Shown: piece after piece, positions 312-54,362 of the stretch
Layout: every line of letters starts with the position of its first letter
How positions within the stretch are numbered: position 1 is the first letter of the stretch
NCBI GenBank assembly: GCA_041178425.1
Contig: JBEGVH010000026.1
Span: forward strand, 35,427-99,426
Length of the DNA stretch: 64,000 nt
From: Pseudomonadota bacterium
GTDB lineage: Bacteria; Bdellovibrionota; Bdellovibrionia; Bdellovibrionales; Bdellovibrionaceae
Direction: 5' to 3'
Notes under the pieces: generated by a model
What the model saw: the letters and a program-made list of their open reading frames with translations, nothing else
The model's database searches: none
What the model was told of the DNA's origin: nothing
Made by a program: the position numbers and the translations under genes

Positions 312-2789
312 TTAATAAGGTTGGTGCTTGCAAAAGGGAGCTTTGGGGTCGCGAGTGCACAAATAAAGGCGCAGATCGGCGTTGTCTTTTTCAAGCCGCT
401 CAATCTTTCGCTGTAGGATTTGTTGCTCTGACAGGATGTTTGTGATCGAAAGTTTGAGGGTCTCCCATTCGGCCTTGATAGATTGAAATTGGGTTTCGAC
501 GACGTTGAATTTACCAACGAGCGCTCGGAAGGCCTCAATCAAGGGGGCAAGAAGGTGAGGGTAAGACACTCGCTTGAGTTGAGTTGTTTCGTCTGTTGTT
601 ACCACTTCAGGAAAGATTTTTTCAACCTCTTGAGCGATCAGGCCAATCTGAGGGCCTTGACCATAGGTTGCGGGGTCTCTCCATAAATAAGATTTGCCAT
701 GCAATTGCAGAATTTTATCGAGAGAATTCTCGAGGGGGTTGATTTGTGTTTTGAGGCGTTCGTCAGATGAAGCCGTACAACCACCGGCGGTACAGATTTG
801 AGCTCCGCCAATACGAAGAGAGCCTTGCGCATTGATGGGGCCAGCCACATCTAATTTATACTGAGGTGTCGGCGTGTCGATGCCTACGTTCCGAGACGTC
901 TGTAGCGCCAAGAGCGGATTGGGCGAATTAGGATTATTAGTTACATCCATAAAAATAGGTCGCTCGAAGGCCTGGATTCGGAGTCGATCATAACTGGCAT
1001 TAGTTTCATAAAAGATGGTGCCTTTGGGAATTAGGCCTTGGGTGATTCCAAGACCAACGCCGCCCGTGCCATTGCCTGCGCGACCTATGCCCACCGACCA
1101 TCCGTTGATTGAAGAAACGAAACCCGGAAAGTTTGTTCCGTCCACTCTTGTTCCCGGAGAGGAGAGATAGTCTCTTGCGGTTTGGAGGTCTCCACTAATC
1201 ACCGTGTTTCTAAATAGGCCTGAATACACACCTCGACCGTTGACGGTGAGCTTGGCTTCGGGGTTAAAGAGTCCGCCCCCAATCCCGACGTTGCCCGTGT
1301 CTCCACGCACGAGCATCGGGGTGCAAAGTTCATAATCAGCACCGCAATTCGTGGTGTTCATGGGGTTTGGTTGATAAATCTGAAAGATTAAATCATTTTT
1401 GTTGTAGGCCTTCAAAACAAGAGCCCCAGGCACTCCCCCTCGCCCAACAACATCTCCCCAATAAACACCACCGAGGGTGGGATTGGGTCGGCCAGCGGGT
1501 GGTTTATCAGTCATAAAAAATAAACCGAATGCATCCGAAGCTCTGCCAAGCCCCATCCATTTTCCATCTTTATAAAATGTAGCGATTCCAACGTTATCCA
1601 TTCCTGCGGGCGACCCTGGTGCACTCAAAAGTTTTGCTATGTGGTCGGGGTGTGCTGAAATAAAAGGGCCTGTGGAGAGCGTCATCTGCGCGCTCTTTTT
1701 AGTTCTTACATAGAGAGCTCCGTCGCATGCTGCTCCATTGTCGGGACACGTATCGACAACGAGGGGGCGTTCACCATAGGTGCGCAAATTAATGGCCCCC
1801 GTAGCAAACCCCATCTGCGTCCATCCAGGCGTTGGATTGGGGTAGGCAATCATCGAGTACATTCCCCGGTTTCTGTAGTTAACAGCCACACCCGCCGCTG
1901 TGCCGCTGGAGTGCTCACCAAGTGCCACGCCTAGTCCGTTTAAGCCGTTGAGGCCACCGATTGTAATTCCATGTCCTAAACTCCATTGGGTTTGCGCTTG
2001 GGCGATCCCATTTTTATCGCCGAGGAACAAAAGATTTTCTCCGTAAATGTTTCCGGTGTTAAAGATGGTTGGCAGTTTAGTCCAATCGCTGGCAACGGCG
2101 AGCCGCAGGTACAAGCATGAGGGAATTTTAGTAGAATCGTATCTTCCACCCAAAAGCTCGCACACTCGTTTCGGATCATTGGTGTCGACAGAACAATCAA
2201 AAAAAGTTCCATCAGCCTTGGTGATAATAGCGAGAGCCACTCGACCTCTCACAACTTTTCCCCCGAGGTTGTCGTCTCCTTGTTTTGTGCCAGTGATCGT
2301 CATTTGAGTGAGGTAGTACTTAAAGTCACCTATGACGCCGTTTTCGTCGGGATACTTAAAATCAATGGGTCCATCTTTTTTGGCTTCTATTTTGGCCGTG
2401 ATAAGGTACTCAGAATTATTGAGCCCCAAAAGCACATTCTTTTTACCCGAATCAACAATCCCGATGTCATTCACTTCAGCGCCTGTGTACTTATCGAGGG
2501 GAATTGTCGCGCTTTGCGGTCGCACGATACTATTTTTGCAGACTCTTTGTTTAGCGGCATTTTCTGCAGCGGTCGGAGGTCTTGCCAAGGTGAGAGAAAC
2601 AAGGTTTTCAACAGCCTGCAAATCGTTACCAATTCGCATGTGTTTTAAACTCTGAAATCCCATGTTCGACATAGAAGCCACGGCATAAAGAATAATCGCC
2701 GAAACACCCACAACCAAGGAGAGCTCAATCAGGCTCACCCCTTTTTGTGACTTAATTCCAAAAAGTTCTTTACGCATATTGACCCTCAT
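312..2789 (-). CDS. Prepilin-type N-terminal domain protein with fibre repeats and C-terminal peptidase S74 (intramolecular chaperone) domain
   Basis: QKG|VSLIELSLVVGVSAIIL class III signal with E+5; GNVGIG..P..KL.V.G fibre repeats; SSDERLK...IGLIAQEVEKIFPEVV S74 motif plus terminal coiled coil; start set at ATG 2789 (GGGAG RBS). Confidence 0.85.
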   Translation of the reverse strand: MRVNMRKELFGIKSQKGVSLIELSLVVGVSAIILYAVASMSNMGFQSLKHMRIGNDLQAVENLVSLTLARPPTAAENAAKQRVCKNSIVRPQSATIPLDKYTGAEVNDIGIVDSGKKNVLLGLNNSEYLITAKIEAKKDGPIDFKYPDENGVIGDFKYYLTQMTITGTKQGDDNLGGKVVRGRVALAIITKADGTFFDCSVDTNDPKRVCELLGGRYDSTKIPSCLYLRLAVASDWTKLPTIFNTGNIYGENLLFLGDKNGIAQAQTQWSLGHGITIGGLNGLNGLGVALGEHSSGTAAGVAVNYRNRGMYSMIAYPNPTPGWTQMGFATGAINLRTYGERPLVVDTCPDNGAACDGALYVRTKKSAQMTLSTGPFISAHPDHIAKLLSAPGSPAGMDNVGIATFYKDGKWMGLGRASDAFGLFFMTDKPPAGRPNPTLGGVYWGDVVGRGGVPGALVLKAYNKNDLIFQIYQPNPMNTTNCGADYELCTPMLVRGDTGNVGIGGGLFNPEAKLTVNGRGVYSGLFRNTVISGDLQTARDYLSSPGTRVDGTNFPGFVSSINGWSVGIGRAGNGTGGVGLGITQGLIPKGTIFYETNASYDRLRIQAFERPIFMDVTNNPNSPNPLLALQTSRNVGIDTPTPQYKLDVAGPINAQGSLRIGGAQICTAGGCTASSDERLKTQINPLENSLDKILQLHGKSYLWRDPATYGQGPQIGLIAQEVEKIFPEVVTTDETTQLKRVSYPHLLAPLIEAFRALVGKFNVVETQFQSIKAEWETLKLSITNILSEQQILQRKIERLEKDNADLRLYLCTRDPKAPFCKHQPY

Positions 2790-2968
2790 GTCTCCCATTG
2801 TTTCATTGAACAATTTGGGAATGGGGGCCGTCTAGATCTAATAATTAATAAGCGATAAGGTTCTCATTTCGAGATGCTTATCTCTTATTAAAAAGTGGCT
2901 AATGCCAAAGTGATAAAAAATTGTTTTTTAGAACCTCAAAATGAGGCACAAAATTCAAAATAGTCTGT

Positions 2969-42685: not shown

Positions 42686-45600
42686 TCACTTTTTCGCTAA
42701 GTCAGTGACTTCCACCATGCGGCCAGTATCGAAAAAGATGTCGTAGCTATTGCAGCCGCTCTTACCGCACTGACGAGGGCCAAAGAATTTCGCCTGGTAC
42801 TTAATCACGTTACCGTTGCTCCATTGTTTGTCGGTGGGAACATCCTGGTACTTAACTCCAATACTCGATACGCTCATTTGGCTCAGCGTTTTGAGCTCGT
42901 GGGGTTCAGATCCACCGTTTTTGTTCATATCAAGCCAAACAAGAAGTTTGCCATAGACGGAATCCTTTTGGTCTATCAGACCATCGTTATTTTCATCGTA
43001 TTGTTTGAGGGCCTCGTAGCCATTAGAGGCTAGTTTTCCATTTTGTAATCGAGTGAATTGGCCAAAGAGCTCTCGGCCATCATCAATCTGACCATTGTGA
43101 TTGAGGTCGAGGCCCAGGAGTCCCCCTTGGTGCCCAGCAATCCAGCCGGTATTGATAGGCTTGCCGTCTCCCATGAGATCAAATTTCACCTCTGAATCTT
43201 GAGGGATTGTTTGAATCATGCCCTTGTTCACAAAGTCGAGAGCGATGGGGCTATAAAGTGTGGTGCGGTAACCGATCGTCGTCCCGACTTGTTCTTTGCC
43301 GCTTCCATCCACGCGAACTGGAGTGACGGTGAAATAGTTTGCCTGTGACCAATTCGTTGATTTCATGCAGCCATCGTAGACCGCGAAGCGATCCATGAGG
43401 TTCGGCAATTGTAGATCGTAGCGGCCTTTGGGAAGAGTCTTGTCGGAGACCGCCGAGAAGATCGTTCTCGCTTGCCTAGGGCTTAAGAGATCAGATTGTG
43501 AGGTAGGTGCTGCCACGTTAGCGACATCAACGGTGTAGTTCGATCCGGCCGCGCAGTTGTTGGCTCCTGCAGAAGAAACCTTAACTCGGTTAAAGGTTCC
43601 CCAGAGTCGCAAGATCATATTGCTCTTGTTGTTTTCAAAGGATCCCACCCGAAAGTTAATCCAACACATGGGGGTCGAAATATATCCCGATCCAGCCCCC
43701 TGAGCGAACACTGGGTCGTTGATTCCGCTACTGCAGCTGGACGAGAACGCCCAGCCATCAGTACTTGCGTTCACTGTCCCGGCTCCAATGTTATAGTAAG
43801 CGAGATTTGGCAAAATATGGCGCACAGCCGTCAACACGGGTGTGTACACCGGGCCAGCCGCCTTAATCAAGGCCGCTTGGATTTCGGCTTGTAAGGACGC
43901 ATCCAAACTCGCCTTGGCAATGTTCACTTTTGCTAAGATGGTTGATCCAGCCACGCGAGTATCAGCACCGGCCGCAAAGGCCACATAAGGGAGCACATTG
44001 CCCATGGTTGTCTTGAGGCCGCTAACATCTTGGTAGTAGGCGGTGAGGTTGGTGTTGATATCTTTAACGGCGCGATTAAATTCCATCTGCCAAGAGTCTT
44101 CTTGGGGGCTTAATGAACGCGCGAGTTCAATAAATCGGTCGTATTTACGGCGAGCATCATCGGCCGAGTATTTATCACGACCAGCGCGAGCCAAAAGCAG
44201 GGCGAGTGAATTGATTTGCTTTAGGAGCTTGTCTTCGGATTCGGAGATTTGAGCATCGCTCACAGCCATAGCTCGTATTTTCATTTCGGCCGACGTAATA
44301 CGGTTTTTTAAACCTTTGAAGTTTATTCGTAAGCTTTCAACCGCTCTTGGCAAAACTAAACTATTTGAAATCGCTGTACGCAAGGAGTTGTTGTTGCTTG
44401 AGTTATCATCGAGCAAGGTGGCTTTAGCCCAGCCGTCGATCGCAGCAATACAAGCAGCCGTAGGGCGAGCTTCCATCCCGTCGTAATCGAGCATATAGGC
44501 TGCGAGTGCTTGTGATAGAATGGCCGAGCCAACCATGTCGGACTGATCGGTCTGACCGGTAAAGAAGATACGGTTGTTACTGTCGGAAGCACTACGCATT
44601 CCACTGAGGAGCATTTTCATGTATGCAATCCCCAAAAGACGGAACGAGTCTCTTCCGATCACGCGCGCAAAAGGTGTTGTTTTTATTTCGCCGCAGGTTG
44701 CACCGACGGCTGCCTTGAGGCTGGCATCAAAGAAAGGGAGTTTATCTTGGTCAGCCAAGCCATTAAGAATAAGAGCTTTCATAAACTCTTCGTCAACATC
44801 TCTGAGCATTAAGGGCATTGAAGCGAGTATATCGATGATCGCGTCACGGTCTTGCATAAAGAGAGCATTGATCTCGTCGCTTGTTTTTTTGTTAAAGCCA
44901 ACAAGCGGAGAGAGTGATACTGGAAAGGCCGTTTCACGAAGATTCACATAACTGGCCTGAATAGCATAGAGCGCCTTGGCCGATTCACTGAGTTCGTCTT
45001 TAAATCCATCATCGGCTCCAGCAATTGAAGCAATCTTTCCACCTAAGGCGTTGGTTATAGCGGTTAGTCGATCTTTAGTTTTATCATCTAACACCGACAA
45101 CTTAGACTCTAAGTCTTGCTTAGTTATGTTGAGTGCTTGGGCGGCGCGAACCTTTTCGTTTTCAAAGTCTGTTCGGAGGGAGCTAATCTGCGAAGCTAGA
45201 TTTGCCTGAACGCCGTTGATCTTTTGATCCAGTTGCGCATCGCGAAGGGCAAGGGCGTATGTGGCCCCAAAGAGACCGCACGCTTTCCAGCTGTCTTCGT
45301 TACACTCGGCAGCAGAAGCAGAAGAGCTAATGTCTCCCACCAGTGACTTAATCATTCCGTCATTCACGCCTTCTGGAGCTTCTAAACAACCGGGGTTACA
45401 CTCTTTTCCACCCCAAATAGCCAAGCCCTGAACTTCTGTTCGTTGATTGAGGAAGTGAATGGCAATGTCTTGGCGAATGTTTATAAGGATGTTTAGTCGT
45501 TCCGATGCCGTCTTACTCGTCCAGCTTCGGCAATTTTGCGGAGCCACAGGCTTACCTGTGTCATCAAGGCATTCACCGCAAAAGGTCGGGTACTTCATGG

Positions 45601-46660
45601 CGCACATCTCATAAAGCACAATTTCTTTATTTTTTGTACAGGCTTCGCTCACGCTGGTGCGGTAGTCGGCAAGAAACTCTTCAAAGGTGGCCTTTTTTTG
45701 GCCTAAGAGAAGTTCAATTCCGTTGCGAGTATCGAGATCTTGATTACACTTCCAGTCGTTGATGGCTGCTTCATAAGAACTTGAACCGGCATTTTTGAGA
45801 GTTGTGAGTTCTTGGTTAATAGAGGCAACCACTCTGTTGTTTTCTTCGGTGTTCTTCGCGACTGAGGCCACGAAAACATCATAGGAGCCCTTGAAGTTGG
45901 CCATGTCGGAGCCCTGTTGTACCACCACGCCATTGAGTTGCTGGTACATATTAATAGCCGACTCCGCAAGTCGGACCCCATAGTCGGCACGTTCTTTGGC
46001 GGCCTTGATGCCAGCTTGCATTTGAGCTTTGTCCGCAATGTATTCTTTAATGTGTTCAGCGAGGGCCAACTTTCCCTGAGCTTCAACAACTTCAAGCTGT
46101 TTATTGGTCAGATCAATATCTTTTTGAAGGAGTTTGTCGGCATTATCTACGTACGCGAGAACTCTTTTTTCGAGAGCGGGAATGACCTCATTGTTAATTC
46201 GATCGACTTGGCCTTGAAGATTCTTAAGGTTGCCGAAGATCACGTCAATTTGACCTTGAAGAACGAGAAAATTAATTCGGTCTCGCATTTTTGAAAGGGA
46301 GTCGACGAGTTTGGTGTAGAGTTTCAATACGTCGTTGGAGTTTGTTGGCATTTGCATTTCGAAGATCAATTGCTTAATCTTTTCAAGTGAGCGAGCCATG
46401 TTGGGGCTGAGTGTGGAGAGATAGGAGTCTCCTGGGTATTCAGCCATCTGCTTGATTCCAGCTTCAGCATCATTGATTGTTTCGAAGATAAAATCTTCGC
46501 TCGTGATTTTTGTGCTGGAAACATCTTTTACGTAGTTGAAGGGCGTTGTGTTATTACAGTTCGTGCCGTAGGCAAAAACGAACGATAGAATGCCCACGTA
46601 GAACACGAGATAATACTTTCTCTTGTAAATGAAATTTATGAACGACTTGAAATCTTTCAT
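42686..46660 (-). CDS. Giant coiled-coil surface protein B with C-terminal FrpC-type self-processing-module-like (Ca-binding) domain
   Basis: AGGGGG RBS before ATG 46660; hydrophobic N-terminus ending AYGTNC; long heptads; YSPIALDF...FDLMGDG..TGW...DLNHNGQIDDGRELFG...GYEAL..YD.N.DG.ID..D...L.VW.D.N.NG.S...EL.TL. Confidence 0.85.
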   Translation of the reverse strand: MKDFKSFINFIYKRKYYLVFYVGILSFVFAYGTNCNNTTPFNYVKDVSSTKITSEDFIFETINDAEAGIKQMAEYPGDSYLSTLSPNMARSLEKIKQLIFEMQMPTNSNDVLKLYTKLVDSLSKMRDRINFLVLQGQIDVIFGNLKNLQGQVDRINNEVIPALEKRVLAYVDNADKLLQKDIDLTNKQLEVVEAQGKLALAEHIKEYIADKAQMQAGIKAAKERADYGVRLAESAINMYQQLNGVVVQQGSDMANFKGSYDVFVASVAKNTEENNRVVASINQELTTLKNAGSSSYEAAINDWKCNQDLDTRNGIELLLGQKKATFEEFLADYRTSVSEACTKNKEIVLYEMCAMKYPTFCGECLDDTGKPVAPQNCRSWTSKTASERLNILINIRQDIAIHFLNQRTEVQGLAIWGGKECNPGCLEAPEGVNDGMIKSLVGDISSSASAAECNEDSWKACGLFGATYALALRDAQLDQKINGVQANLASQISSLRTDFENEKVRAAQALNITKQDLESKLSVLDDKTKDRLTAITNALGGKIASIAGADDGFKDELSESAKALYAIQASYVNLRETAFPVSLSPLVGFNKKTSDEINALFMQDRDAIIDILASMPLMLRDVDEEFMKALILNGLADQDKLPFFDASLKAAVGATCGEIKTTPFARVIGRDSFRLLGIAYMKMLLSGMRSASDSNNRIFFTGQTDQSDMVGSAILSQALAAYMLDYDGMEARPTAACIAAIDGWAKATLLDDNSSNNNSLRTAISNSLVLPRAVESLRINFKGLKNRITSAEMKIRAMAVSDAQISESEDKLLKQINSLALLLARAGRDKYSADDARRKYDRFIELARSLSPQEDSWQMEFNRAVKDINTNLTAYYQDVSGLKTTMGNVLPYVAFAAGADTRVAGSTILAKVNIAKASLDASLQAEIQAALIKAAGPVYTPVLTAVRHILPNLAYYNIGAGTVNASTDGWAFSSSCSSGINDPVFAQGAGSGYISTPMCWINFRVGSFENNKSNMILRLWGTFNRVKVSSAGANNCAAGSNYTVDVANVAAPTSQSDLLSPRQARTIFSAVSDKTLPKGRYDLQLPNLMDRFAVYDGCMKSTNWSQANYFTVTPVRVDGSGKEQVGTTIGYRTTLYSPIALDFVNKGMIQTIPQDSEVKFDLMGDGKPINTGWIAGHQGGLLGLDLNHNGQIDDGRELFGQFTRLQNGKLASNGYEALKQYDENNDGLIDQKDSVYGKLLVWLDMNKNGGSEPHELKTLSQMSVSSIGVKYQDVPTDKQWSNGNVIKYQAKFFGPRQCGKSGCNSYDIFFDTGRMVEVTDLAKK

Positions 46661-46897
46661 GTTTACCCCCTGATAACGGACCTGCAACGTAACCATATCC
46701 TCGCAGGAATGGCTGGTCTCTCTAGTTTATTTGGTTTGCATTGATACCTAAAGTTAATTTGTTTTAGGGCTTCTTTTTGATACATTCGAAATTTAATTTT
46801 GAAACAAGACCTGCCTGAATTTGAACCAATGAAGGCCATTGATGAGCCGAAGTGACGGCCTAGGGAGGTCTTATTATAGTTAATCGTTTAGATCGTC

Positions 46898-48853
46898 TCA
46901 TTCTGGTAGATTGGATGACTGTTTCAATTCTCGCAGTGAATGGTTCTCAGCCTCGAGGGCTTCTAATTTTTGACGGATCAGTTCCAGTTCGATGTGTTGC
47001 TCCTGAGCCAGTTCTTGAGCCTTTTTTATATGAACATTGTGGAGCTCTTTGATGGCATTAATAGCCGCCCAATGAATAGGATCGACATTGAGCTCTAGAT
47101 AACCTCTGGGATTCAGTTGCACGGCCTCGGGAATGACTTTTTGAATTTCTTGAGCATTAAAACCACTGAGCTCAACCTCATGCGGTAGTCCAAGGGAGTT
47201 CTCATTTTTGTAGCGATAATGAATGGGTTGAATCTTTAAAATATCTTCGAGTCCATACCGGAACTCCCCACCGATTTCCTGTAGGCGTTCATCCGATGCG
47301 ATTCTCCATGATGAGCCCGAACTAAGGCCTGCCGAGCCCACGACATGCAAGGTATTTTCTGGGTTGGGAGTGCCAATGCCCACATTTCCTTGGCTGGTGA
47401 TACGAAGCCTTTCTGCCGGGCGTTCGTTTTGGGGTTCTCGTTCACTGGTAGAACCGGTGTTGAAAGTGAGATCCATGGAGGAAGTCGATGTATTTTCTGC
47501 GTCGACAACTCCGGAAATGGAGGCTCCGATTTGGGTTTGTTGATCACCCATCTTACGTCGTATTTTTAGCGCATCGAAAACAGTTTCTTTTCGTTCCTTC
47601 AAGGGAGGGAGCAGGCTTAATAAGGGTGGCGGCAGCTGGAGCTCTTCCACTCTGGCGGGCATTGGTTCCGCGAGGGGCGGTTCGTTGAGTTGGAGGGCCA
47701 CTGCACCGGCCGAGGCGCTGATCTGTGGAAGACTATGGGAATAATCGTGGATGTTATTTTCGTCAGGAGGTTTCACCTCAGTCAGAGCCTGCGGCGGTTG
47801 CGGAGGAACAGGAACAGGTGTTTCTATTGTTGGCGCGCGCAGGAGAGTTGTTTTTGGCTCAAACGGTTCGTCTGGTTCCTGGGGTTTTTCTGCTTCGGTG
47901 ATGGATGGGGCCGAAGCTGTCGTGGGTGCGGGAGCGACAACCGATTTTTCATGTGCCGCCGCAGAAAGGCTCATGATGTGCTCTTTGAGTCTCAAGCCTA
48001 CTGCAGTGAATTGTTGAAAGTCATCGTTTTTTCGAACCTTAAAAGGGCGGTAGTTTCCGCCGATAAGATCGTCGATGTAGCGTTCGAGAGCATAGACCGG
48101 GCCCGCCACGCGATGCGAGATGGATTTGCCAAAAATAAAAAGAGCACCAATAAAAATGGCCGTAACAGCACAGAGACTGAGTACAAAGGGGTAAAGGTAA
48201 CCGTGAAGCATTTCCGTGTCGCCATTGGTAAGCGTACTCAGCGTGACTCGCAGATAGGTATAGGCCAGAATACTCACAATAAGGGCCATACTCAAAGAGG
48301 AGATGGTGAGAATGAAACAATACTTCAGTTGAAACTTTAAATTGATCCAGCGAGTTTTGCGAACGTTGGCATCGGGCCAAAAAACATCAGCGTACTTGAA
48401 GAGGCTCACTAAAATCATTAGATGGCCAATCCATTGCATGAGATCGGCGATATTAAAGACCGGTGTCACTTTGTCTTTGTAGTATTTTATGCTTACAAAA
48501 TCGATGACGGCGCCCCAGGTGATTCGGTCGGCCACATTGCCAATGATTCCACCGATCAATAGAGCTAAGCCAATCCGAAGAATGATGGCGCGTGTGGGGA
48601 GTAAGTATTGGATCACAAAGAAGCTAAAAAAGAGAAAAGCTCCAGCTGTTGATAGCGTTACGATTCGTAGAACATCAGGAAGCTGTTTAAACATTCCAAG
48701 CATGGCGCCAGAGTTGTATTGGAGAGAGAATACAAAAGGCCCGTAGTAATGAATACTTGAATACTTGAGTGCCTCCAACTTGGTGTAGCGATCGACTACC
48801 CAAGTGAGCACAATAGCAAGAATCATCCAAAACCAATCAAGTTTACGAAGCAC
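46898..48853 (-). CDS. Fusion: lipoprotein signal peptidase II (LspA) - 2TM/HAMP-like - Pro-rich linker - fibre repeat - S74 domain
   Basis: NSGAMLG, GGIIGNVADR..GAVIDF, FNIAD LspA motifs; SHRVAGPVYAL..R.NDDF HAMP-like; ERLRITSQGNVGIGT; SDERLQ..GFNAQEIQKVIPEAV; GTG start 48853 with AGGAG. Confidence 0.82.
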   Translation of the reverse strand: MLRKLDWFWMILAIVLTWVVDRYTKLEALKYSSIHYYGPFVFSLQYNSGAMLGMFKQLPDVLRIVTLSTAGAFLFFSFFVIQYLLPTRAIILRIGLALLIGGIIGNVADRITWGAVIDFVSIKYYKDKVTPVFNIADLMQWIGHLMILVSLFKYADVFWPDANVRKTRWINLKFQLKYCFILTISSLSMALIVSILAYTYLRVTLSTLTNGDTEMLHGYLYPFVLSLCAVTAIFIGALFIFGKSISHRVAGPVYALERYIDDLIGGNYRPFKVRKNDDFQQFTAVGLRLKEHIMSLSAAAHEKSVVAPAPTTASAPSITEAEKPQEPDEPFEPKTTLLRAPTIETPVPVPPQPPQALTEVKPPDENNIHDYSHSLPQISASAGAVALQLNEPPLAEPMPARVEELQLPPPLLSLLPPLKERKETVFDALKIRRKMGDQQTQIGASISGVVDAENTSTSSMDLTFNTGSTSEREPQNERPAERLRITSQGNVGIGTPNPENTLHVVGSAGLSSGSSWRIASDERLQEIGGEFRYGLEDILKIQPIHYRYKNENSLGLPHEVELSGFNAQEIQKVIPEAVQLNPRGYLELNVDPIHWAAINAIKELHNVHIKKAQELAQEQHIELELIRQKLEALEAENHSLRELKQSSNLPE

Positions 48854-48873
48854 GCATTTTTCTCCTGCTTTTC

Positions 48874-48901
48874 TTATCGGCGGGAGGTTCAAAAAACTGT
48901 G
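48874..48901 (-). promoter_or_regulatory. Possible sigma28 (FliA) promoter
   Basis: Exact GCCGATAA -10 box 20 nt upstream of the GTG; -35 (CACAGTTT) is a weak match. Confidence 0.35.
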
Positions 48902-48932
48902 GTCCAGGGGAGTAAAGATCTAGACTAAAGCA

Positions 48933-50258
48933 CTACAACTGAAAAGACAATCCGGCTTGAACAGCACCGCTGGCGGAGGCTCGTCCGACGAGCGAAAAAC
49001 CGAGTTTTTCACTGCCAGACCCCGGAAAGAGAAAGCTGAGGCGGAGCTCGGCCCAGGGATCGAGGGTGAACTGTTCTGGTTTTACTTCGATGGTATTGAG
49101 TTCTCTCTTCATGCGAGTGCCAGTGTAGTAATCGAGGACGAGTTTTCGCTCTTTAACGTAAAATTGAAAGTCGGTTCCGACGCTCATATTGAATCGAATC
49201 ATTCTAAAAAAGGTGTAGCCTAGGCCGCCGCTCACAGGAAAAATCAGTTTTTGTTCGACAAAGGGCTTGCTCTCAATGGCGAGCTCGCTGAGATCGACGG
49301 GTGGCAGTGTGTCGATGGGAGTGTTCATGTCGGGACTCCCTGGATTAGGACTATAGAGGTATTTTAATTTAGTTTCGGCATAGAATAACCCGAAGCGAGC
49401 ATTAAAATAAGGGTTGAAGTCATAATTAAAATTCGCACCATAGCGAGCGCCTGAACCTTTTTCGAAAGATCGAATCAAAGGGTCTTCAAGGCCCTGAACG
49501 TCCGAGGAATCGGGAATTTTGGAGACGGCCCCCGAGTAATCGAGGGATGACACACCAGACTCGCCGAGTAAGTCGATTTGAAGGATCCAGGCCGATGGCC
49601 CGTTTCGTCGATTGGCATTGCCAATCTTACATGCCTCGCGTTGTAACTCGGTGGTTGAACCGAGAATCCATCCAAATCCTTCGCCGGCCTCCACTTGGTA
49701 CCAAAGAGTGTTGGTTTTTTTGATCGTTCGGCGCCCAAACCAATTGAGAGAGGCTCCTTTGCCGATTTGGATAATTTTTTTTGAAGCTGAATCGGGTTCT
49801 TCGAAAACAGCGGTTTGAGTCTGTGTTACTGCGCAGAGGGGCTCAGCCGAACAAAGACCCGGAGTTCCAATTTTCACAACGGATTCATTCACTATGTAAT
49901 CACCTTGAACAAGGTGAATCGTAAAGGATCTGTTTTCAAGGTCCTTTGAAACGCTCGGAACAATTCTTCCTTTTTTGATAGGTACACTGGCCGCGCCCAC
50001 GGTTGAAATAGCTTGAACGGTTTGACTTAGAAGCAAACATGTTTTTTCGGGGGCGTTTTCAAAGGCACTTTTTCCGCCGGAACTTGAGTTTTGAATTGGT
50101 TTTGGAGCGCTCGGGCTATTAGCGGCTTCGGGCACAGGGGGCGGACCAGATGGTGCCGCAGGAGTCAGAGTGTCGTCGGCGAAAGACGTCTGCCAAACAC
50201 TCAGTGCAAGGGCAACAGGCATCCAATGGTGAGGAGAAAATAAACGGCTCAATGTCAC
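48933..50258 (-). CDS. Secreted protein with SH3-like domain and C-terminal outer-membrane beta-barrel
   Basis: Signal peptide SFA|D; Pro-rich linker; WYQVEAGEGFGWI SH3b-like motif; alternating beta strands ending GLSFQL. Confidence 0.65.
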   Translation of the reverse strand: MTLSRLFSPHHWMPVALALSVWQTSFADDTLTPAAPSGPPPVPEAANSPSAPKPIQNSSSGGKSAFENAPEKTCLLLSQTVQAISTVGAASVPIKKGRIVPSVSKDLENRSFTIHLVQGDYIVNESVVKIGTPGLCSAEPLCAVTQTQTAVFEEPDSASKKIIQIGKGASLNWFGRRTIKKTNTLWYQVEAGEGFGWILGSTTELQREACKIGNANRRNGPSAWILQIDLLGESGVSSLDYSGAVSKIPDSSDVQGLEDPLIRSFEKGSGARYGANFNYDFNPYFNARFGLFYAETKLKYLYSPNPGSPDMNTPIDTLPPVDLSELAIESKPFVEQKLIFPVSGGLGYTFFRMIRFNMSVGTDFQFYVKERKLVLDYYTGTRMKRELNTIEVKPEQFTLDPWAELRLSFLFPGSGSEKLGFSLVGRASASGAVQAGLSFQL

Positions 50259-50330
50259 TCGATTATTTTGCTCGAGAGATGTCTCATCAGCAATCAGGAA
50301 TCGATGGCCTAGACGAAAGCTCGGAAAAAG

Positions 50331-50363
50331 AAAAACACCAGAGTGGTAATCTCTGGTGTTTTT
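50331..50363. terminator. Intrinsic terminator of giant gene A
   Basis: AAAAACACCAGAG-tggtaat-CTCTGGTGTTTTT. Confidence 0.8.
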
Positions 50364-50411
50364 TCTGGGAACTAAGGTTTAAAGAATCTATTCGGCAGTC
50401 AGTGAAGCGCC

Positions 50412-53400
50412 TTACTGCTTGGCAAGATTTGGTACCTCTACCAGACGACCGGTTTCAAAGAATATATCGTAACTGTTACAGCCTTTTTTGCCACACTGGC
50501 GAGGTCCGAAAAACTTGGCTTGGTATTTAACCATATTGCCATTGTTGATCTGATTCTTTGCAGGCACTTCTTTGTAGTTGACCGCTATTTTTGTTACGTC
50601 CATTTCTGCAAGAGTCTTCATTTCGAAAGGCTCAGAAACACCGTTCACATTGTTATCAAACCAAACCAGCAGATTGTGGTATGCAGGGTCTTTATTATCG
50701 ATGACACCGTCCTTATTAACATCGTATTGAGCGAGAGCCTCGTACCCGTTCTTCGCCAAGCGCCCATTGGGCAATTGAGTGAATTGTCCAAAGAGCTCAC
50801 GGCCATCATCGATGTGACCATTATTATTTAAGTCGATTCCCAAGAAAGCTCCTTGTCGCCCCGAAACCCACCCTGTATGGGTCGGTTGACCATCGCCTGT
50901 GAGGTCAAATTTCACCTCGGAGTCTTGGGCTAAGGTTTCGATCATCCCTTTGTTGACGAAGTCGAGAACGATAGGACTGTAAAGGGTTGAGCGGTAGCCA
51001 ACTGCTGTGCCGAGCACTTCGCCTCCGTTGCCGTCCACTCGCACTGGTGTGACGGTGAAGAAGCTTGCTCGATTCCAGTTAGTTTGCTCCATACAGGCAC
51101 CGCCGTAATAGTAGGCGTCGAACAATTTTGGAACCTGAAGATCATAGCGTCCCTTTGGTCCAGCCGCATCGACTTTCGAAGCGTAAATCATTCTGTGACT
51201 CTGGGGAGATAATAAATCATTTTGAGATGTCGGAGTGGTGACCGTTGCTACATCCAGTCGGTACACAGAATCATTGCTAGCCGCACAATTGTTGGCCCCT
51301 GCTGGTTTGACAATAAAGCGATTGGCGCTACCCCAAACTCTCAGAATCATATTGTGTTTATTGGCTTCCATAGATCCATTTCTCATATTAACCCAACACA
51401 AATAGCTTCCTTGAATGTATCCCGCCGACTTGGATTCACTAAACACCACGTCGTTCATATTACTTGTGCAACTGGAAGCGACGGCGCCAGTGCCGAGGTT
51501 GTATCCTGCGTAATTGGGAAGAATATGTCGGATCGAGGTGACCTCTGGCGTGTAATTAGCCGTTGCCACAGCGGCATTCACCTGAGCCAAAATACTTGCA
51601 TCGAGGGTTGCTTTTGCCGCGTTCACTTTGGCAAGGATTGTCGAACCGGCCACTCTCGAATCGGCGTTGGCAGCGAATGCGACATAGGGAATAATGTTAC
51701 TCATATTAGTTTTCAACGAGGTCACATCTTGATAGTAAGAGGTTAGATTTGTATTTACTTGTCTCAAGGCAGTGTTGAACTCCATTTGCCATGAATCCGT
51801 TTGAGGGCTCAGGCTACGCGCTAACTCTGTGAGGGAATCAAAGCGTCGACGAGCAACATCCGAAGAAAACTTATCCCTTCCGGCTTTTGCTAATAGGAAA
51901 GCGAGTTTGTTGATTTGCGTGGTGAGAGTGGCTTCGGCTTCAGGCACTTGGGTGTCGGATACGGCCATGGCTCGCACTTTCATTTCGATCGCGTTGACCC
52001 GATTTTTTAAGCCATCATAGGAAATTCGTAAAGACTCCACCGCGCGTGGAAGTGTAAGGCTATTCGAAATGGCTGTACGAAGAGCACTGTTATTTGATGA
52101 CGAATTATCGAGAAGTTCCGCTTTGGCCCAGGCATCAATCGCAGACAAACAAGCGGCTGACGGATTGGCCTCAACCGCATCATAACTAAGCATATACGCT
52201 GTAAGGGCCTGGCTCAGAATGGCTGAGCCTACCATATCGGATCGGTCGGTTTGGCCCGAAAAGAAAATGCGATTATTAGAGTCAGAGGTGCTTCGAACAC
52301 CATTGATTAGTTCTTTGATGTAGGCAATCCCTAATAAGCGGAATGAGTCACGACCAATCACCCGATTAAACGGCGATTTGGTAATCGCCCCGCAAGTCGT
52401 TCCCAGAGCTGACGCCATGCTGGCATCAAAGAAAGGAAGATTATTTTGGTCGGCCAAATTGGAAGTGATCAACGCTTTCATGAATTCGCGATCAACATCG
52501 TTCAGTAGTGCCGGCAAGTTGGCGAGGATATCAACAAGGGCATCTCGGTCTTGCATAAAGATCGCATTGATTTCATCGGCCGATTTGGTTTTAAAACCAA
52601 CTAAGGGTGTCAGCGAGGTTGGAAAAGCCGTTTCTCTCAAGCTCACGTAGCTTGCTTGAACAGCGTAGAGTGTTTTTGAGGCGGCGTCTAACTCATCTGC
52701 GAAAGATTGATCGGCACCAGCAATCGAAGTGATCTTGCCTCCGAGAGCATTGGTGATAGCGCCTAGTCGATCCTTGGTTTTATCGTCGAGAGTAGAGATC
52801 TTGGCCTCGAGATCTTGCTTTGTCATATTGAGAGCCTGTGCGGCACGAACTTTTTCGTTTTCAAAGTCGGTTCGCAAAGAGTCGATTTGAGCGGCGAGGT
52901 TCGCTTGGACGCCATTGATCTTTTGGTCTAGTTGAGCATCGCGAAGAGCAAGGGCATAGGTCGCGCCAAAAAGTCCGCAGGCTTTCCAGCTATCTTCCGT
53001 ACAAACCGAAGTAGATCCAGAAGAAGCATTCAGATCTCCAACAAGAGATTTAATCATATTGTCGCTCACACCCTCTGGAGCCTCTAAACAACTGGCGTTA
53101 CAGTCCTTTCCGCCCCAAATGGCTAGGCCCTGAACTTCGGTGCGTTGATTAAGAAAGTGAATCGCAATGTCTTGGCGAAGGTTAATAAGTATATTAAGTC
53201 GTTCCGATGCCGTCTTGTTCATCCAACTCGCACAAGAGTTGGGAGGCACAGGAGTTCCGTTTGCATCCAGACACTCACCGCAGAAGGTGGGGTATTGAAG
53301 GGCACACATATTGTAGAGCATGAGTTCTTTGCTGCGAGTACAAGCTTCGCTCACATTGGTTTGATACGCATTGACGAACTCGTTAAAATTGGCAGCGCGC

Positions 53401-54362
53401 TGACCGAGCATCAGCTCAATACCATTGCGAGTATCGAGGTCTTCGGTACATTTCCAGTCTTTCATAGCGGCATCGTAAGAGCTGTTGCTTGCGTTTTTAA
53501 GTGCGGCCAACTCACCATTGATCGCATTCACAATTTTATTGTTCTCTTCGGTATTTTTTGAAACGGCAGCAACAAAGACGTCGTAAGACCCTTTAAAGCT
53601 CTTCATCTCCGAACCCTGCTGAGCCACAACGCCGTTTAATTGTTGATACATATTGATAGCTGACTCTGCGAGTCTGACCCCATAGTCAGCCCGTTCTTTA
53701 GCGGCTTTAATGTCAGCCTGCATTTGTGTCTTATCAGCCATGTAGTTTTTGATATGATCTGCGAGGGCGGCTTTGCCCTGTGCTTCGACGAGTTCGAGTT
53801 GTTTTCCTGTGAGGTCAATATCTTTTTGGAGCATTTTGTCGGCGTTATCGACATAGGAGATCATTCGTTTCTCAAGGGCTGGAATAACCTCGTTGTTAAT
53901 TCGATCAACCTGACCTTGGAGATTCTTAAGGTTTCCGAAGATCACGTCGATTTGGCCTTGAAGAACGAGAAAATTAATTCGGTCACGCATTTTCGACAGG
54001 GAGTCGACGAGTTTTGTATAGAGTTTTAAAACGTCGTTAGAATTGGTTGGCAGTTGCAAGTCGAAGATGAGGTTTTTAATTTTATCAAGAGAGCGAGCCA
54101 TGTTGGGGCTAAGGGTCGAAAGGTAGCTGTCTCCAGGATACTCAGACATTTGTTTAATCCCGGCTTCTGCATCGTTGATCGTTTCGAAGATGAAGTCTTC
54201 ACTCGCTATTTTTTGACTGCTGATATCTTTTACGTAATTAAAAGGTGTGGTGTTATTACAGTTTGTCCCGTAGGCAAATACAAAGGACAAAATCGCAACG
54301 TAAAAGGTGAGATAGATTCCTCTGGCTTTCGCACGATTGAGCCAATTTTTTAAAAAATTCAT
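50412..54362 (-). CDS. Giant coiled-coil surface protein A, paralog of 42686-46660, with C-terminal self-processing-module-like domain
   Basis: GGAGG RBS; colinear with paralog B over its full length; YSPIVLDF...DLNNNGHIDDGRELFG. Confidence 0.85.
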   Translation of the reverse strand: MNFLKNWLNRAKARGIYLTFYVAILSFVFAYGTNCNNTTPFNYVKDISSQKIASEDFIFETINDAEAGIKQMSEYPGDSYLSTLSPNMARSLDKIKNLIFDLQLPTNSNDVLKLYTKLVDSLSKMRDRINFLVLQGQIDVIFGNLKNLQGQVDRINNEVIPALEKRMISYVDNADKMLQKDIDLTGKQLELVEAQGKAALADHIKNYMADKTQMQADIKAAKERADYGVRLAESAINMYQQLNGVVAQQGSEMKSFKGSYDVFVAAVSKNTEENNKIVNAINGELAALKNASNSSYDAAMKDWKCTEDLDTRNGIELMLGQRAANFNEFVNAYQTNVSEACTRSKELMLYNMCALQYPTFCGECLDANGTPVPPNSCASWMNKTASERLNILINLRQDIAIHFLNQRTEVQGLAIWGGKDCNASCLEAPEGVSDNMIKSLVGDLNASSGSTSVCTEDSWKACGLFGATYALALRDAQLDQKINGVQANLAAQIDSLRTDFENEKVRAAQALNMTKQDLEAKISTLDDKTKDRLGAITNALGGKITSIAGADQSFADELDAASKTLYAVQASYVSLRETAFPTSLTPLVGFKTKSADEINAIFMQDRDALVDILANLPALLNDVDREFMKALITSNLADQNNLPFFDASMASALGTTCGAITKSPFNRVIGRDSFRLLGIAYIKELINGVRSTSDSNNRIFFSGQTDRSDMVGSAILSQALTAYMLSYDAVEANPSAACLSAIDAWAKAELLDNSSSNNSALRTAISNSLTLPRAVESLRISYDGLKNRVNAIEMKVRAMAVSDTQVPEAEATLTTQINKLAFLLAKAGRDKFSSDVARRRFDSLTELARSLSPQTDSWQMEFNTALRQVNTNLTSYYQDVTSLKTNMSNIIPYVAFAANADSRVAGSTILAKVNAAKATLDASILAQVNAAVATANYTPEVTSIRHILPNYAGYNLGTGAVASSCTSNMNDVVFSESKSAGYIQGSYLCWVNMRNGSMEANKHNMILRVWGSANRFIVKPAGANNCAASNDSVYRLDVATVTTPTSQNDLLSPQSHRMIYASKVDAAGPKGRYDLQVPKLFDAYYYGGACMEQTNWNRASFFTVTPVRVDGNGGEVLGTAVGYRSTLYSPIVLDFVNKGMIETLAQDSEVKFDLTGDGQPTHTGWVSGRQGAFLGIDLNNNGHIDDGRELFGQFTQLPNGRLAKNGYEALAQYDVNKDGVIDNKDPAYHNLLVWFDNNVNGVSEPFEMKTLAEMDVTKIAVNYKEVPAKNQINNGNMVKYQAKFFGPRQCGKKGCNSYDIFFETGRLVEVPNLAKQ

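Follow-up and report, generated by a model that had tools for sequence, protein, structure and literature searches.

Lipoprotein signal peptidase II (LspA) cleaves with a catalytic dyad formed by D124 and D143 in the P. aeruginosa enzyme, and both of its termini lie in the cytoplasm (PMC8048626). MAT fibres begin with a signal peptide, through which they are exported, and a β-rich N-terminal domain of ~130 aa; the fibre Bd3182 cleaves itself at S782, in an SDxxxK motif (PMC10769870). In MYRF/MrfA, an S74 domain (there called ICA) sits on the cytoplasmic side of a membrane protein and drives the formation of trimers (PMC8326128, PMC5436001). The MYRF substitutions K592A, K592R, K592H and K592M block cleavage (PMC8326128, PMC3742440), although cuts at new sites can appear in mutants (PMC8326128). 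The uncleavable K583A co-assembles with the wild type (PMC5436001), and a G-x-I-A-Q motif is linked to trimerisation (PMC3742440).

Here, we describe a gene that joins elements of these systems, located in the window (i.e. the whole stretch of 64,000 nt that was analysed). The host genome (G000; 3.06 Mb, 100% complete) is that of a predatory-type freshwater bacterium. The encoded protein shares the fold and both catalytic aspartates of LspA (PDB 5dir, 6ryo), but scores below the TIGR00077 cut-off and is extended by a module of two transmembrane helices and a HAMP-like segment (2TM-HAMP-like). With Bd3182-type MAT fibres (PMC10769870; PDB 8ojn) it has in common a capping-loop repeat, an AGLS.G..W..AS tip, an S74 core and a coiled coil, whereas the fusion has a single repeat, a broken SDxxxK motif and a predicted cytoplasmic location behind a membrane protease. 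MYRF needs cleavage to free its N-terminal factor; in the fusion, in contrast, the membrane part comes first and cleavage appears to be lost.

Gene structure and integrity of the fusion

A single frame on the minus strand runs uninterrupted across positions 46898-48892 (664 aa counted from a TTG at 48892) and joins LspA, membrane helices, linker, fibre repeat and S74 domain, in agreement with the original prediction (Table 1). The likely start codon is the GTG at 48853, at which the NCBI protein also begins. Residue numbers used here run from the TTG, placing the GTG start at residue 14; 13 has to be subtracted for the 651-aa product. The linker spans ~130 aa (residues 311-440), which corrects an earlier estimate of ~150 aa. 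Scans for promoters and terminators gave counts no higher than chance.

Table 1. Positions of the fusion gene, its parts and related copies (two-dot positions and codon positions refer to the window)
Feature	Position	Strand	Basis or detail
Whole gene	46898..48853	-	651 aa; open reading frame and NCBI protein P0011
Shine-Dalgarno-like AGGAG, 8 nt 5' of GTG	48862..48866	-	Read in sequence
LspA (Pfam A8), residues 27-165	48398..48814	-	Pfam, fold, alignment
Catalytic Asp codons	D131 48500-48502; D150 48443-48445	-	Alignment
Two membrane helices (~192-210, ~236-254) and HAMP-like segment (~258-308)	47969..48340	-	Hydropathy, model, profile comparisons
Pro/Glu/Ala-rich linker, residues 311-440	47573..47962	-	Composition; predicted disordered, pLDDT < 50
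One fibre repeat (ERLRIT..GNVGIGTPNP..LHV) and AGLSSGSSW tip of Bd3182-type MAT fibres	47297..47572	-	PDB 8ojn match
S74 chaperone domain and C-terminal coiled coil	46901..47296	-	Pfam, alignments
S74 codons	Ser533 47294-47296; Gln538 47279-47281; Asn579 47156-47158	-	Ser kept; Gln in place of Lys; Asn in GFNAQ
C7 copy	G000 C7:11303-13240		
C10 copy	G000 C10:45142-47022		
Methyltransferase-fused copies	L033:2444-4360; L034:993-2894; L004:1453-3333		

That an assembly chimera explains the fusion has a negligible probability, as no point in its favour was found and independent assemblies carry the join. A 17.9-kb contig (run X1) and a 22.9-kb contig (run X2) each span the gene without a difference, a contig of run X4 bridges 47399-47905, and the identical protein is on record from two contigs, of 138,226 and 99,426 bases. 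X1 and X2 represent two studies, either of which may be where the window came from. Run X3, from a third study, contributes near-identical pieces over most of the gene; among the pieces listed, which leave 47596-47637 and 46940-47021 uncovered, there are three differences in 47022-47445, none in 47407-47595 and 10 in 47638-51324. The gene was found in runs from three studies, and the break in coverage at an assembly-unique fusion that had been named as a possible refutation was not seen, given the spanning contigs of X1 and X2 and the bridge in X4.

The LspA part and its family

The N-terminal part is an intact-looking signal peptidase II, as had been claimed. It scores well above the gathering threshold of Pfam Peptidase_A8 (PF01252; E 2.4e-20, 73.6 bits vs 25), PDB 5dir is the top Foldseek match for the model of the protein (E 1e-6), and D131 (in VIDF) and D150 (in NIAD) occupy the alignment columns of D124 and D143 in the P. 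aeruginosa enzyme. Its score against the equivalog model TIGR00077 is 57.8, under the cut-off of 73.95, and the C7 copy of the same genome and one short family member likewise fall under it. A canonical lspA (177-aa frame) sits elsewhere in the genome. The window protein would be an accessory lipoprotein signal peptidase, predicted to cleave diacylated prolipoproteins.

LspA-2TM-HAMP-like genes are nearly ubiquitous in this bacterial family: at E 1e-30, the protein finds a match in 175 of 182 genomes. Among the 150 matches listed (80 further ones are weaker, and at most six candidates were scored per genome), all except the gene itself cover residues 1 to ~350 only, in frames mostly of 300-390 aa. 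Of 401 genomes drawn from the wider phylum, 128 have a match, none of which covers both halves among the matches listed (nine were left out). The members, of ~300-390 aa, are 40-61% identical to residues 14-310 of the window protein, and named relatives and Atlas clusters place them in the Bdellovibrionota. Unlike the fusion, they end short, in low-complexity sequence or, in two congeners (G001, G004) and the C10 copy, in a methyltransferase; none was found with an S74 domain. A conserved second LspA with a HAMP-like module thus occurs across the Bdellovibrio group and is apparently undescribed. It is possibly a regulated signal peptidase II and possibly of wider interest than the S74 fusion. 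Experiments on it are directly feasible in laboratory strains of B. bacteriovorus, and it is relevant to the question of a regulated lipoprotein maturation. In a literature search whose coverage took in few subscription papers, we found nothing on an LspA-HAMP protein or this base family, on an LspA-S74 fusion, or on an S74 domain lacking its dyad.

The original prediction of two transmembrane helices with a HAMP-like segment holds for the helices; the segment itself is HAMP-like only. None of 28 family members matches Pfam HAMP (PF00672) at E 0.5, and the locus is absent from the genome's eight PF00672 matches. For the HAMP layout of a TM with, after it, a P-helix, a connector with G and a D-E-helix, an hhalign alignment with six canonical HAMP domains covers 63 columns at P 0.009 and a probability of 4%. 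A homologue encoded as a free-standing protein (E 4.5e-12 against the family profile) matches the TM-HAMP regions in models of WalK and MtrB, with E values between 1e-5 and 3e-5. A HAMP identity of the module is no more than suggested by these profile comparisons. The genome encodes several such free-standing 2TM-HAMP-like proteins of ~155 aa (G000 C22:58656-59123, C9:49848-50312, C10:126207-126686), homologous to the middle module at E 1e-8 to 5e-12; they are possible partners or a possible source of it.

Three LspA-2TM-HAMP-like genes are present in the genome: the C7 copy (646-aa frame) with a Pro/acidic tail, the C10 copy (627) with a methyltransferase-like tail, and the window copy. In three genomes of other genera that were checked (G005, G013, G024), the family gene adjoins an S13 D-Ala-D-Ala carboxypeptidase gene; in the host genus, the methyltransferase-fused copy is found there instead. 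G001 and G004 have a syntenic gene for the C7 copy; the window copy is without a counterpart. A tree of 32 rows places it as sister to C7, in one clade with C7 and P0016 (support 100/99), its LspA-part branch being 0.99 vs 0.21 for C7. Synonymous sites between these two copies are saturated (pS 0.77, 4-fold identity 35%), with a dN of 0.33. Of 102 conserved columns, 13 are changed in the window copy, mostly conservatively; both aspartates and the other invariant LspA residues are retained. Because of this saturation, the dN and the retained columns and aspartates, the window copy is, by its substitution pattern, an old duplicate of the family-wide gene whose peptidase part appears to have been kept under selection. 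The C10 copy departs at 37 of the 102 columns, has lost both aspartates and is a decaying paralogue.

The methyltransferase-fused copies make up a second capture in the same genus, in which the LspA-2TM-HAMP-like part is followed by two CxxC motifs and a class I methyltransferase (G004, G001). In the copy of the host genome, from which both catalytic aspartates are gone, the methyltransferase is much diverged.

Origin of the tail

Homology to fibre repeats begins at about residue 440, and the single capping-loop repeat (residues 494-520) matches PDB 8ojn, which we take to be Bd3182, and 8ond. The proteins closest to the tail are large S74-terminated fibres, 45-60% identical to it, and the best S74 relative is 62% identical over the core. 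The window protein has neither the signal peptide nor the β-rich N-terminal domain of MAT fibres, its N-terminus being the LspA. These homologies identify the tail as the 3' part of a Bd3182-type MAT fibre gene, comprising its last repeat, its tip and its S74 domain, which was captured in frame. Compared with the tails of the C7 copy, P0016 and P0006, the linker shows no significant resemblance; across the family, tails range from ~10 to 340 aa, and the long ones are of low complexity and mutually unrelated.

The architecture appears to be restricted to this lineage. None of the 175 S74 relatives carries an LspA part, the window's own protein is the only one among 99 longer proteins in which both Pfam families occur together, and no second case emerged from the matches listed for 182 family and 401 phylum genomes or from protein searches. 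This bears out the fusion with a fibre-gene remnant that had been offered as an alternative, at least as a lineage-specific event, while the same architecture in related genomes and a conserved Lys-to-Gln change, both of which had been proposed as things to look for, were not found. No close donor came to light either: blastn found none in the genome, and the S74 domains of four congeners are only 28-36% identical. Codon use of the tail lies inside the genome range, at its 16th percentile.

An S74 domain without its catalytic lysine

Pfam recognises Peptidase_S74 (PF13884) at residues 533-591 (E 6.6e-8, 33.2 bits vs 22), the weakest of the 11 S74 matches in the genome. Its motif reads SDERLQ, the glutamine codon being CAG, one base from AAG, whereas the gene at window positions 312-2813 reads SDERLK and the lysine is retained in each of the genome's 10 other S74 domains; the exchange of the autocleavage lysine reported originally is thereby confirmed. 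Among 175 distinct S74 relatives, picked by their likeness to the window domain and limited to full-length cores, Ser and Lys are present in every one. The window copy keeps Ser533, Asp534 and Arg536 and changes one of the eight invariant columns, the lysine. It also keeps 14 of the 15 columns that are at least 97% conserved, with the lysine alone changed; a random single change among these 15 would fall in the dyad in ~2/15 of cases. Compared with its nearest S74 relative, it has changes at 4 of the 38 conserved columns and at 42 of the 82 others. In the tree of S74 relatives its branch is 1.94 long, vs a median of 0.21.

A second unusual change, which had been missed before, is Asn579: the sequence reads GFNAQ in place of G-x-I/V-A-Q, with G, A and Q kept. 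Asparagine occurs at this position in none of the 175 relatives, and Ser, Gly, Lys or Arg in 22. K538Q and I579N are each one base from the consensus codon.

The ~350 codons of the tail have stayed open. When neutral decay of codons 311-664 was simulated, a changed lysine, a frame open to 610 and the other 14 columns kept occurred together in at most ~1.5% of cases at any divergence tried; the simulation used substitutions only, leaving out indels, and its estimate for the Lys codon is rough. Since no donor was found, the retained conserved columns may predate the fusion. Changes seem to crowd round the scissile bond (of the 9 found at 60 subclade-conserved columns, 5 fall no more than 6 residues from Ser533; P 0.004), but this was dropped as evidence because relatives with an intact lysine show it too, three of them with five such changes and 11 with four. 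The main text of a deep mutational scan (PMC12632334) holds no dyad data.

Predicted topology and possible trimerisation

Because both LspA termini are cytoplasmic (PMC8048626) and two further hydrophobic helices follow, the HAMP-like segment, the linker and the S74 domain should all be cytoplasmic, which supports the topology originally predicted. Modelled as a trimer, three copies of residues 445-664 score 0.84 vs 0.00 for the best control. The threshold applied is attained by 20 of 30 solved one-chain pairs and by 1 of 23 single chains; the score may reflect likeness only, because similar complexes have already been solved. At least 92% of contacts are shared between runs, and pLDDT is at least 80. 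A long C-terminal helix is present in the single-chain model; the fibre/S74 core is of low confidence there, as S74 relatives were missing from the alignment. The tail also matches PDB 7dc3 (MYRF/MrfA) by sequence (E 1.4e-5). By homology to the MYRF lysine mutants, the Gln-bearing S74 would stay attached and could still trimerise. The proposal of a non-cleaving domain is thus supported by the glutamine at the dyad and the MYRF lysine mutants, and that of a possible role in trimerisation by the trimer model and the co-assembly of MYRF K583A.

Weighing the explanations

The reading that we favour, and consider slightly more probable than improbable, is that an accessory LspA has retained a captured fibre tip as a tail that stays uncleaved and trimerises. 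It builds on the observed architecture, duplication, tail origin and loss of the catalytic lysine. The main competitor, plausible though hardly probable, is a tolerated passenger: only the LspA-HAMP-like part would matter, and the recently joined, dispensable fibre end would do nothing, K538Q and I579N being the first hits of decay. This is in keeping with a fusion seen, among the matches listed, in one species only, with two changes that each need one base, with family tails that vary freely from ~10 to 340 aa, and with a gene lying between tandem paralogues of 1316 and 1336 aa in a recently rearranged region; there is also no donor by which to date the join. Against it, the sole near-invariant position lost (1/15) is the catalytic lysine, the ~350 tail codons are open with a simulated joint chance of at most ~1.5% (a rough figure from substitutions only), and the codon use of the tail is in the host range. 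The points that weaken the favoured reading are the single species, the lack of a close donor, so that the conserved columns may have been inherited from the fibre, the single base that separates Gln from Lys, Asn579 in the motif linked to trimerisation, the long branches (0.99 and 1.94), which fit relaxed selection equally well, and the long, low-complexity and unrelated tails of the family, because of which almost any tail may be tolerated. HAMP domains are dimers, which would clash with a three-fold tail.

Two further accounts concern the S74 domain itself. It is very unlikely that it still cuts, slowly or elsewhere, by means of another base, so that the mature enzyme sheds its chaperone. 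Ser533, Asp534 and Arg536 would be available for this, but glutamine cannot serve as a base. MYRF mutants can gain cut sites (PMC8326128), whereas all the MYRF lysine substitutions tried (A, R, H, M; Gln was not among them) blocked cleavage. About as improbable is the in-trans fibre chaperone or trap of the original prediction, in which the dead S74 would co-assemble with nascent fibre chains in the cytoplasm, folding them or holding them at the membrane. Non-cleavable MYRF does trap wild-type chains in mixed oligomers (PMC5436001), and the genome has 10 other S74 proteins as potential clients. These, however, all carry an intact dyad of their own, which leaves the proposal unsupported; those that match the tail are only 27-37% identical, and MAT fibres leave by signal peptides (PMC10769870) while the S74 tail is predicted to be cytoplasmic.

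In the favoured reading of a kept, uncleaved tail, a duplicate of the family-wide LspA-2TM-HAMP-like gene would have gained a fibre 3' end in frame, and its S74 would fold and trimerise without cutting itself, giving a trimeric knob that stays permanently attached through a flexible tether. This knob could gather three LspA-HAMP-like chains, and the tail would thereby alter the clustering, localisation or stability of LspA, not its chemistry. There may have been a reason to lose cleavage, because a single upstream repeat would hold little of a trimer after release of the chaperone. The fusion and its retained fibre history are compatible with the trimerisation reading; the two are not exclusive. 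If this is true, the chaperone-trimer role of S74 has become independent of self-cleavage and now serves a membrane enzyme, in a reversal of the MYRF case, though the reach of this is limited because the fusion is confined to one uncultured species. A bolder version, which we think doubtful, makes the dead S74 a cytoplasmic trimer scaffold that would cross-link accessory LspA into a patch at one site, and the family a platform for regulated signal peptidases, to which domain capture adds cytoplasmic inputs (methyltransferase, S74). A network of two-fold HAMP-like and three-fold S74 contacts is possible but speculative.

Neighbouring genes and other S74 proteins

The fusion gene is flanked by tandem paralogues on the same minus strand (42686-46696 and 50412-54362), which encode secreted-looking proteins of 1336 and 1316 aa that are 73% identical. 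They have relatives in congeners for the C-terminal ~150 aa only, and the full length was not found in four congeners. One run X3 piece of the first paralogue differs at 63 of 1405 bases, far above the fusion gene. Upstream, 80 nt before the fusion and on the same strand, lies a 441-aa gene (48933-50258, minus strand) with a weak SH3 match; its distribution is patchy, with 8 of 182 family genomes having it, and it is perhaps co-transcribed with the fusion gene.

At the N-terminus of the S74 fibre protein encoded at window positions 312-2813 (minus strand), a type IV pilin-like N-methyl motif, weakly matched (E 0.013), takes the place of the usual MAT N-domain, and three tandem S74 genes (G000 C9:255846-261786) have N-termini that look related to it. 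A short frame of 254 aa (G000 C20:88363-89124) combines a twin-arginine-like N-terminus with an intact S74 domain.
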